Assembly (NCBI RefSeq): GCF_056712565.1
Contig: NZ_CM160072.1
DNA length: 64,000 bases
Strand: one strand, 5' to 3'
Shown: one piece after another, positions 58,920 through 59,652 of the stretch
How positions within the stretch are numbered: the stretch's first letter is position 1
How the letters are laid out: every line of letters begins with the position of its first letter
Position numbers and translations under genes: made by a program
Notes under the pieces: model-generated
What the model was told of the DNA's origin: nothing
The model's database searches: none
The model's input: the letters and a program-made list of their open reading frames with translations, nothing else

Positions 58920-59652
58920 AATCGATCCGCCATAATCCCTGTAAGCAATCGACGCGTGTTACAACTGCCACCGAACGATGTTCAGCGGATTCTTCCATCC
59001 GGGATAAGAAGGAAATGGCAAATACGACCAGCGCACAGAGCATTGAGCGCCAATGGGGAAGGCTTAGTGAAAACGGGTAGTAATGTTGTCATCATCAGCA
59101 TTCCTGGCCGTAAATGAAACACGCATACTCATAAGTGAAATCAATTAAATACTAACAGTTATATTCATGTTGTCTATTTGATTGCCATCAACTTGTGATA
59201 CATCGCGATGTTCTTCCGTTCGCTGGTGTTTTTTCCAAAAATATTCTGTACAGGTTCACAGATTCTGTTGCACAGGTTTCCGTAACAGGGAAACCTGATG
59301 ACTATCACATAACGTTATTATCGCCTGATGTGCGAATAAATACCGAATATAAAATAATTTATTCTGAAAAGATGATAGATGATAAAGGTTCGTGGGTTTA
59401 ATAAAATATTCCCTAAAAGATTCATTTAAAACAACAAAATAAGATAAAGATATTAATTCAGAGTTTATCTTAGGATAAATATTTATTTAATAGCATTAAC
59501 TCACCGCTAAAAGTTGATCCCCATAACGCTAAATCCGATTATAGTGAAGTTACTTTTTTTAATTGATGGCATCTTATAGACATATTTAACTAACTGAAAA
59601 GACGAATCATATGTTTTTCGAAGTGTAGCAGAAAATATATATGGGGTTTAAA

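Follow-up and report, generated by a model that had tools for sequence, protein, structure and literature searches.

The closest described counterpart of the locus studied here is that of Escherichia coli K-12 MG1655 (b3487, b4790, b3488, b4660, and b3491), in which the gene order is yhiI-yhiY-yhiJ-yhiL'-yhiM. The small gene yhiY was discovered through ribosome profiling (10.1101/511675), and its product was detected by mass spectrometry in K-12 at ~1000-3000 copies per cell (PMC12529367). Term-seq data of Adams et al. placed 3' ends at K-12 positions 3630667, in the yhiY stop codon, and 3630645, 20 nt beyond it (PMC7815308); the latter was flagged as Rho-dependent and as 'uORF', and a yhiI fusion was more than 2-fold upregulated in rhoR66S (PMC7815308). 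On the other side of the locus, Seo et al. reported a GadE ChIP-exo peak for yhiM (P8; 3632675-3632700 in NC_000913.2) and a yhiM transcription start at -98 from the GTG, 7 nt after the K-12 counterpart of a TATAGT element, whereas primer extension by De Biase et al. gave a start 22 nt upstream of the GTG with ATGAAA as -35 and TTCAAT as -10 (PMC6604978). The yhiM mRNA of K-12 is ~15-fold lower in a gadE mutant, and published lists count the gene as RpoS-involved and among the H-NS targets. In strain CFT073, 500 bp upstream of yhiM complement a mutant, and phosphorylated CpxR (CpxR~P) shifts a -400..0 probe (PMC11005409). Further parallels are offered by the leader-ORF/Rho attenuators of the mdtU-mdtJI type (Adams et al. 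2021), by the GAD box at gadA, gadBC, and hdeD, and by H-NS-silenced, strain-variable, low-GC insertions.

The window analyzed here, a stretch of 64,000 nucleotides from RefSeq assembly GCF_056712565.1 (contig NZ_CM160072.1), showed 100% identity to the E. coli type strain ATCC 11775 (NZ_CP033092.2). Its yhiI-yhiM gap covers 733 bp (58920-59652) between the yhiI start codon (58919, minus strand) and the yhiM start (59653, plus strand), two genes that point away from each other, and has a GC content of 35.5% overall, down to 24-30% close to yhiM. A preliminary description, made from the sequence alone, had characterized this interval as an AT-rich non-coding gap of ~730 bp in which K-12 carries additional genes. 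Length and composition were as described, and yhiJ and a frameshifted yhiL-type pseudogene do lie between yhiI and yhiM in K-12; the term "non-coding" has to be dropped because RefSeq annotates the 37-aa yhiY on the minus strand. Our data indicate that the interval is very probably an ancestral Escherichia intergenic region in three parts, namely a yhiY unit, a spacer, and a yhiM control region, and that the extra genes of K-12 are derived (Table 1). The validated small-protein gene and two promoter regions occupy most of the conserved part of the gap. It is an ordinary locus without any new kind of element or system: earlier work in K-12 or CFT073 has already covered yhiY with its Rho-sensitive leader, the GadE site, the promoters of yhiM, and CpxR binding. 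The only thing that may not have been published is which way the change went, K-12 being the strain with a foreign-looking replacement that includes its yhiM allele.

Table 1. Features of the yhiI-yhiM interval and its right flank (window coordinates; percentages are invariant alignment columns).
Feature	Position	Strand	Remarks
yhiY-yhiI spacer	58920-58981	-	82% across five Escherichia lineages
yhiY, 37-aa small protein, proposed upstream ORF of yhiI-rbbA-yhhJ	58982-59095	-	RefSeq CDS WP_001304942.1
Inferred yhiY 5' UTR	59096-59142	-	94%; start at ~59142, placed by K-12 homology
yhiY promoter	59149-59176	-	-35 TAGACA (59176-59171), 16-nt spacer, TG-extended -10 TAGTAT (59154-59149); promoter scan; 97%
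Conserved block upstream of yhiY promoter	59177-59215	.	Short form only; 82% among short forms
68-codon ORF, not a gene	59195-59401	+	Stops in all four outgroup sequences plus frame-shifting length changes; no Pfam match
AT-rich spacer with repeats	59216-59454	.	35%, least conserved part of the gap
Predicted GadE (GAD-box-like) site	59462-59490	+	Core TTAGGATAAATATTTATTTAA (59470-59490); ~78 bp upstream of inferred distal start
Conserved -10 TATAGT (59540-59545) and inferred distal yhiM start (~59552-59553)	59540-59553	+	TATAGT invariant in 7/7 sequences
Counterpart of K-12 proximal yhiM promoter	59594-59630	+	CTGAAA-N17-TTCGAA; equivalent start ~59630
yhiM, DUF2776 inner-membrane protein	59653-60705	+	Pfam DUF2776; genus-typical allele linked to the short gap
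yhiM-yhiN spacer	60706-60796	.	Hairpin 60720-60746; 87 bp here vs 315 unrelated bp in K-12; yhiN C-terminus differs

Homology, block boundaries, the conservation pattern, and the correspondence to sites mapped in K-12 were established directly in this analysis. Identity to K-12 was 95.7% up to position 59149, 80% across yhiM (59643-60706), and 98% from 60797 onward, with two short K-12-similar islands within the gap, one at the yhiY promoter (59141-59177) and the other at the GadE-box region (59460-59489). The left junction of the K-12 insert falls at ~59177-59179, the yhiJ stop codon of K-12 being located 5 nt upstream of the yhiY -35 element, and homology on the right side restarts at ~59455, so that yhiJ and yhiL of K-12 stand in place of 59177-59454. 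The divergent block continues through yhiM and ends in the last codons of yhiN, whose product has 397 aa here against 400 aa in K-12. The alignment proposed in the preliminary description thus yielded the boundaries that it was meant to define, whereas the difference itself turned out to be a block replacement including yhiM and not a simple indel. Common to both strains are yhiI and yhiY with its promoter and core leader, the GadE box and the -10 element TATAGT, as well as the order yhiM-yhiN-pitA. Only K-12 has 3.7 kb with two DUF4049 genes in place of the middle of the gap and an insertion of ~95 nt in the yhiY leader; its yhiM allele differs by 21% in nucleotide sequence, its proximal -10 element (TTCAAT) is better, and its yhiM-yhiN spacer of 315 bp is unrelated.

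Searching species-representative genomes for YhiM yielded six loci. In E. albertii, E. whittamii, Escherichia sp. E1V33, and the divergent 'E. coli' E69, the arrangement is yhiI-(yhiY)-yhiM with gaps of 670-733 bp that align with the window over their whole length, and no remnant of YhiJ or YhiL was found in the gap (tblastn E > 1; the K-12 yhiJ/yhiL region was also compared by tblastx). The few weak tblastx matches in the gap lay on the shared promoter and GadE-box islands or were short chance matches, without any DUF4049 coding similarity. Because the outgroups share the same gap end to end without these remnants, the short form appears to be ancestral and not a deletion scar. The alleles of the neighboring gene point the same way: yhiM of the window shares 90.7-90.8% nucleotide identity with those of E. 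albertii, E. whittamii, and E1V33 (first 717 nt), with 91-95% for the flanking yhiI, while it shares only 78.7% with K-12 over the same 717 nt (80% over the whole gene; 90% at the amino acid level). K-12 yhiM is equally remote from every short-form allele (77.7-79.6%), although yhiI is 96% identical between K-12 and the window. Since the divergence of yhiM from the outgroups matches that of yhiI and the K-12 allele is far from all of them, the short form and its yhiM were probably inherited vertically.

From these comparisons, the K-12 form looks like a derived replacement by ~5.3 kb of foreign-looking, low-GC DNA, in which 59177-60796 would have given way to yhiJ and yhiL (37% and 35% GC, respectively), together with a divergent allele of yhiM and another yhiM-yhiN spacer. 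Homologous recombination in the flanks is the probable route, the donor not having been found. The K-12-only segment resembles H-NS-silenced, strain-variable insertions in its GC content (35-37%), its absence from the outgroups, and its purely chromosomal occurrence; it differs from these in having also brought a replacement copy of the resident gene yhiM. No integrase, tRNA, or flanking repeat was seen beside it in the stretches examined, and a search for a mobile origin of yhiJ in a plasmid collection matched only three mislabelled chromosomes and no true plasmid relatives. The search for a donor of the K-12-type yhiM was also negative, the nearest homologues past Escherichia being ~60% identical and belonging to unrelated phyla. 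YhiM homologues fell into two Escherichia clusters, followed at ~60% identity by proteins from Alphaproteobacteria, Actinobacteria, and Bordetella. Because no intermediate enterobacterial relatives were present among the matches listed, and given a GC content of 43% against 51% for the window, yhiM looks like an old acquisition of the genus.

Two other histories of the short form were weighed against vertical inheritance. The first supposes that the lineage once carried yhiJ and yhiL and then lost both, as in the deletion scar considered in the preliminary description. Frequency would favor this view, since of 5426 complete E. coli genomes, 5413 of which matched the locus, 4285 (~79%) carry the insert and ~1128 the short core (the list of the latter includes ST131, Nissle 1917, and many urinary isolates), and deletions at this locus do happen. 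Real deletions, however, look different. E. coli HH97 (locus L010, 2380-4296) is a long form from which most of yhiJ/yhiL has been deleted; it retains the K-12 YhiM protein and a DUF4049 fragment of 84 bp. Escherichia sp. MOD1-EC7003 (locus L006, 7483-9054) has a K-12-type yhiM (95.5% nucleotide identity) together with two short yhiJ fragments; it entirely lacks yhhJ-rbbA-yhiI-yhiY and joins directly to DNA matching window position ~53968. True scars thus keep a K-12-type yhiM and pieces of DUF4049 genes, whereas the gap examined here has neither leftover DUF4049 coding sequence nor K-12-type flanks on both sides, its right flank being the genus-typical yhiM, and it can be aligned over its full extent with the gaps of E. 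albertii, E. whittamii, E1V33, and E69. The deletion scar is therefore refuted as an account of this gap, a loss of both genes being extremely unlikely, and the "ancestral empty site" of the preliminary description is supported by the four outgroup lineages.

In the other history, which is very improbable as well, this lineage received the short haplotype from another Escherichia species, and the native state of E. coli is that of K-12. Such an import would account for the sharp block boundaries, of the kind left by recombination, and for strain 64.1, in which the short gap is combined with the same YhiI protein as in HH97, a long-form strain. This pairing in itself hints at recombination within the locus. 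Against it, the yhiM of the window lies ~9% away from those of the other Escherichia species, close to the value for yhiI (5-9%) and as vertical descent predicts, whereas the K-12-type yhiM is 20-22% away from every one of those species. Vertical inheritance of the short form remains our preferred reading. Since no donor turned up for the K-12-type block, this block may reflect either an old balanced polymorphism or a later import.

The left part of the gap (58920-59215) would constitute a leftward yhiY unit, comprising a sigma-70-type promoter, a leader of ~47 nt, and the 37 codons of yhiY. YhiY matched Pfam PF23514 over residues 1-37 of 37 (96.2 bits; cut-off, 27), and its frame is intact in four of the five short-form sequences (E. 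coli, E69, E. whittamii, and E. albertii); in E1V33 (locus L004, ~7260-7375), yhiY is frameshifted by a 1-nt insertion, with promoter and leader intact. Across the five short-form lineages, the proportion of invariant columns fell from 97% in the promoter and 94% in the leader to 76% in the yhiY coding sequence and 35% in the middle of the gap. The K-12 counterpart of the promoter reads TAGACA-N16-TACTAT and precedes the K-12 transcription start, for which we took the 5' end of the yhiI-fusion primer of Adams et al., 7 nt after the shared -10 element. Because that end lies 7 nt past the shared -10, transcription of yhiY in this strain would start at ~59142. By homology, the two K-12 3' ends correspond to positions ~58962 and 58984. 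A hairpin at 58968-58988 spans the yhiY stop codon, and its pairs are kept in all lineages, with only G-C to G-U changes. Directly after yhiY, Rho-dependent termination, as known from K-12, may limit read-through into yhiI-rbbA-yhhJ. With its short translated leader ORF and Rho-dependent 3' ends before the main gene, this arrangement resembles the mdtU-mdtJI-type attenuators; it appears to differ in that YhiY builds up as a detectable protein, and yhiY is at present a proposed uORF.

Within this unit, 72 nt covering the yhiY leader and the first 10 codons (59066-59137) do not vary among the six Escherichia lineages compared, E. albertii and K-12 among them, and are more conserved than the adjacent coding sequence. 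An RNA fold in the leader had no compensatory pairs (z = -1.4), and covariation does not explain this block beyond the constraint on promoter, leader, and start region. The K-12 leader (locus L009, ~2827-2924, minus strand) has its insertion of ~95 nt between the shared promoter and leader, at the position equivalent to window ~59138-59148; the insertion contains its own inverted repeat (CTGTTC...GAACAG) and makes the K-12 leader ~3 times longer than the one here.

The middle part (59216-59454) would be AT-rich spacer DNA under weak constraint, and its inverted and direct repeats most likely have no function. All repeats noted in the preliminary description are present, namely TGTACAGGTT (59247-59256), TGCACAGGTT (59269-59278), and the inverted repeat CAGGTTTCC-N7-GGAAACCTG (59273-59297) with 9/9 perfect arms. 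The inverted repeat is perfect only in E. coli, being reduced to ~7/9 in E1V33 and ~5/9 in E. albertii without compensating changes; in E. whittamii and E69, a 39-bp deletion removed it together with the direct repeats, and it is absent from K-12. Its hairpin was predicted at -15.4 kcal/mol (z = -3.7). On one strand the stem runs into ATGACTATC, on the other into TGCAACAGA, without a T-run, and no intrinsic terminator was found on either strand of 58800-59800, nor any Rfam match at E <= 1 on either strand of 58700-59900. Searched for elsewhere, as the preliminary description had suggested, the repeat proved to be single-copy, the only other match in the window having 3 mismatches; each genome has the 503-bp core at a single place, unlike a REP, MITE, or IS end. 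Perfect 9-bp hairpin repeats with loops of 3-20 nt number 24 in the window (~0.27 per 733 bp), two of which lie in the gap; of dinucleotide-preserving shuffles of the gap, 7.9% contained at least one and 2% at least two, so that finding the repeat here is of only modest significance. The inverted repeat is probably not functional, given its position in the least conserved segment, its imperfect state or loss in the outgroups, and the missing T-run.

It has also to be asked whether the inverted repeat, with or without the direct repeats spaced by 22 bp, could be a working operator, for example, a non-consensus site for CpxR~P in uropathogenic strains. The perfect palindrome forms a stable hairpin and lies within the -400..0 probe shifted by CpxR~P in CFT073, for which the authors found no CpxR consensus in the upstream region of yhiM (PMC11005409), in agreement with our scan. 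The repeat is moreover invariant in the three aligned short-form E. coli sequences, within a segment at least 99% identical in 1105 short-form genomes. Such invariance nevertheless says little among sequences at least 98% identical, and the identical repeat in divergent short-form genomes is uninformative, whereas the degradation or deletion of the repeat in the outgroups and its absence from K-12 speak against a conserved role. For the CpxR box GTAAA-N5-GTAAA, the best sites in the gap had 2 mismatches, and the window contained 63 such sites against 51 expected by chance, so no CpxR-like box rose above chance, and comparable palindromes are common in the window. We consider an operator at this position improbable, and the middle segment is most likely neutral spacer DNA. 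A sequence fitting the LexA-box core CTGT-N8-ACAG, CTGTACAGGTTCACAG, occurs at 59246-59261; two such cores were counted in the window against 0.5 expected, a chance-level value that 7 of 100 shuffles reached, and the outgroups show a weakened core or, in two cases, a deletion of it. E. coli 64.1 (locus L011, ~1950-1975; window ~59377) has a 14-bp tandem duplication of a GATGATA-type repeat.

The 68-codon ORF of the preliminary description exists, with a GTG start, as an open frame in this strain, as do other short ORFs of the middle segment, and might on that ground be taken to encode a protein. All ORFs of the gap except yhiY are, however, broken by stops or frameshifts in the outgroups, the 68-codon frame in all four of them; the Pfam search gave no match, and no convincing ribosome-binding site had been seen in the preliminary description. 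It is almost certain that neither this ORF nor its short neighbors are coding.

The right-hand part (59455-59652) would be the yhiM control region, in which a GadE box lies ~78 bp upstream of a TATAGT promoter accompanied by a weaker proximal promoter, and on which, according to published work, H-NS silencing and CpxR activation may act. The suggestion that the gap is a regulatory region for yhiM thus applies to the right-hand ~200 bp, with the GadE site and the conserved -10 element, and not to the left ~260 bp, which form the separate yhiY unit. After conversion of the coordinates of Seo et al. from NC_000913.2 to NC_000913.3 (offset 1977, checked on the hdeA/hdeD peaks), K-12 peak P8 reads AATTAATCTTAGGATAAATTTTTATT and lies at -189..-164 from the yhiM GTG. 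Window positions 59462-59487 agree with it in 23 of 26 bases and are equally far from the start codon of yhiM. Moreover, TAGGATAAAT and the adjoining TTT runs are invariant in both deep haplotypes, while the surrounding non-coding DNA is heavily diverged. The site partly resembles TTAGGAttTTgTTATTTAAa / TTARGAWWWWAAATA, its TTAGGA-TAAATAT-TTATTTAA having both halves with 2 extra bases between them. As in the GAD box at gadA, gadBC, and hdeD, TTAGGA forms the core, an AT-rich half similar to TTATTTAA comes next, and the position corresponds to that of a K-12 GadE ChIP-exo peak; in contrast to these, the site is centered near -78 instead of ~-63, its half spacing is 2 bp longer, and the GadE ChIP signal at yhiM in K-12 is weak (signal-to-noise ratio, 1.53). 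Binding of GadE and the distal start are thus predicted for this strain from the correspondence with K-12. A second perfect 9-bp inverted repeat, TAAGATAAA-N15-TTTATCTTA (59440-59448 / 59464-59472), adjoins the GadE box; in the outgroups, the left arm of this repeat is not conserved.

Because its -10 element is degenerate (TTCGAA vs TTCAAT), the proximal yhiM promoter may be weaker here, and its use may differ from that in K-12. The primer used for yhiM deletion in CFT073 matches 59591-59640 in 49 of 50 bases, the first 45 (59591-59635) exactly, so CFT073 has the short haplotype. An in-frame ATG, 12 nt upstream of the annotated yhiM start (59641-59655), serves as the start in the mechanically generated ORF list; since K-12 lacks this ATG and uses a GTG aligned with 59653, the annotated start is taken to be the conserved one.

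A broader interpretation, possible although rather unlikely, is that E. coli maintains two very old haplotypes of this locus, with the K-12 type derived from an unsampled lineage, both outward control regions rewired, and phenotypes partly dependent on the haplotype. The yhiM of the source lineage (~21% at the nucleotide level) would then be more diverged than that of any sampled Escherichia species, and the arrival of the K-12 type would have added ~95 nt to the yhiY leader and exchanged all sequence upstream of the GadE box of yhiM. If this were true, reports on YhiM in K-12 (acid resistance and GABA export) and in uropathogenic strains (copper and Cpx) would partly reflect the haplotype, and the B2-only palindrome and repeat region could be a non-consensus target of CpxR. 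Under the replacement history favored here, the model strain K-12 lacks the ancestral state of the yhiI-yhiM locus, which calls for caution. Its yhiM allele (90% amino acid identity), the region upstream of yhiM, and the yhiY leader differ from those of B2 and uropathogenic strains. Collectively, regulatory and phenotypic results on yhiM and yhiI should be checked before they are transferred between K-12 and B2 or uropathogenic backgrounds.
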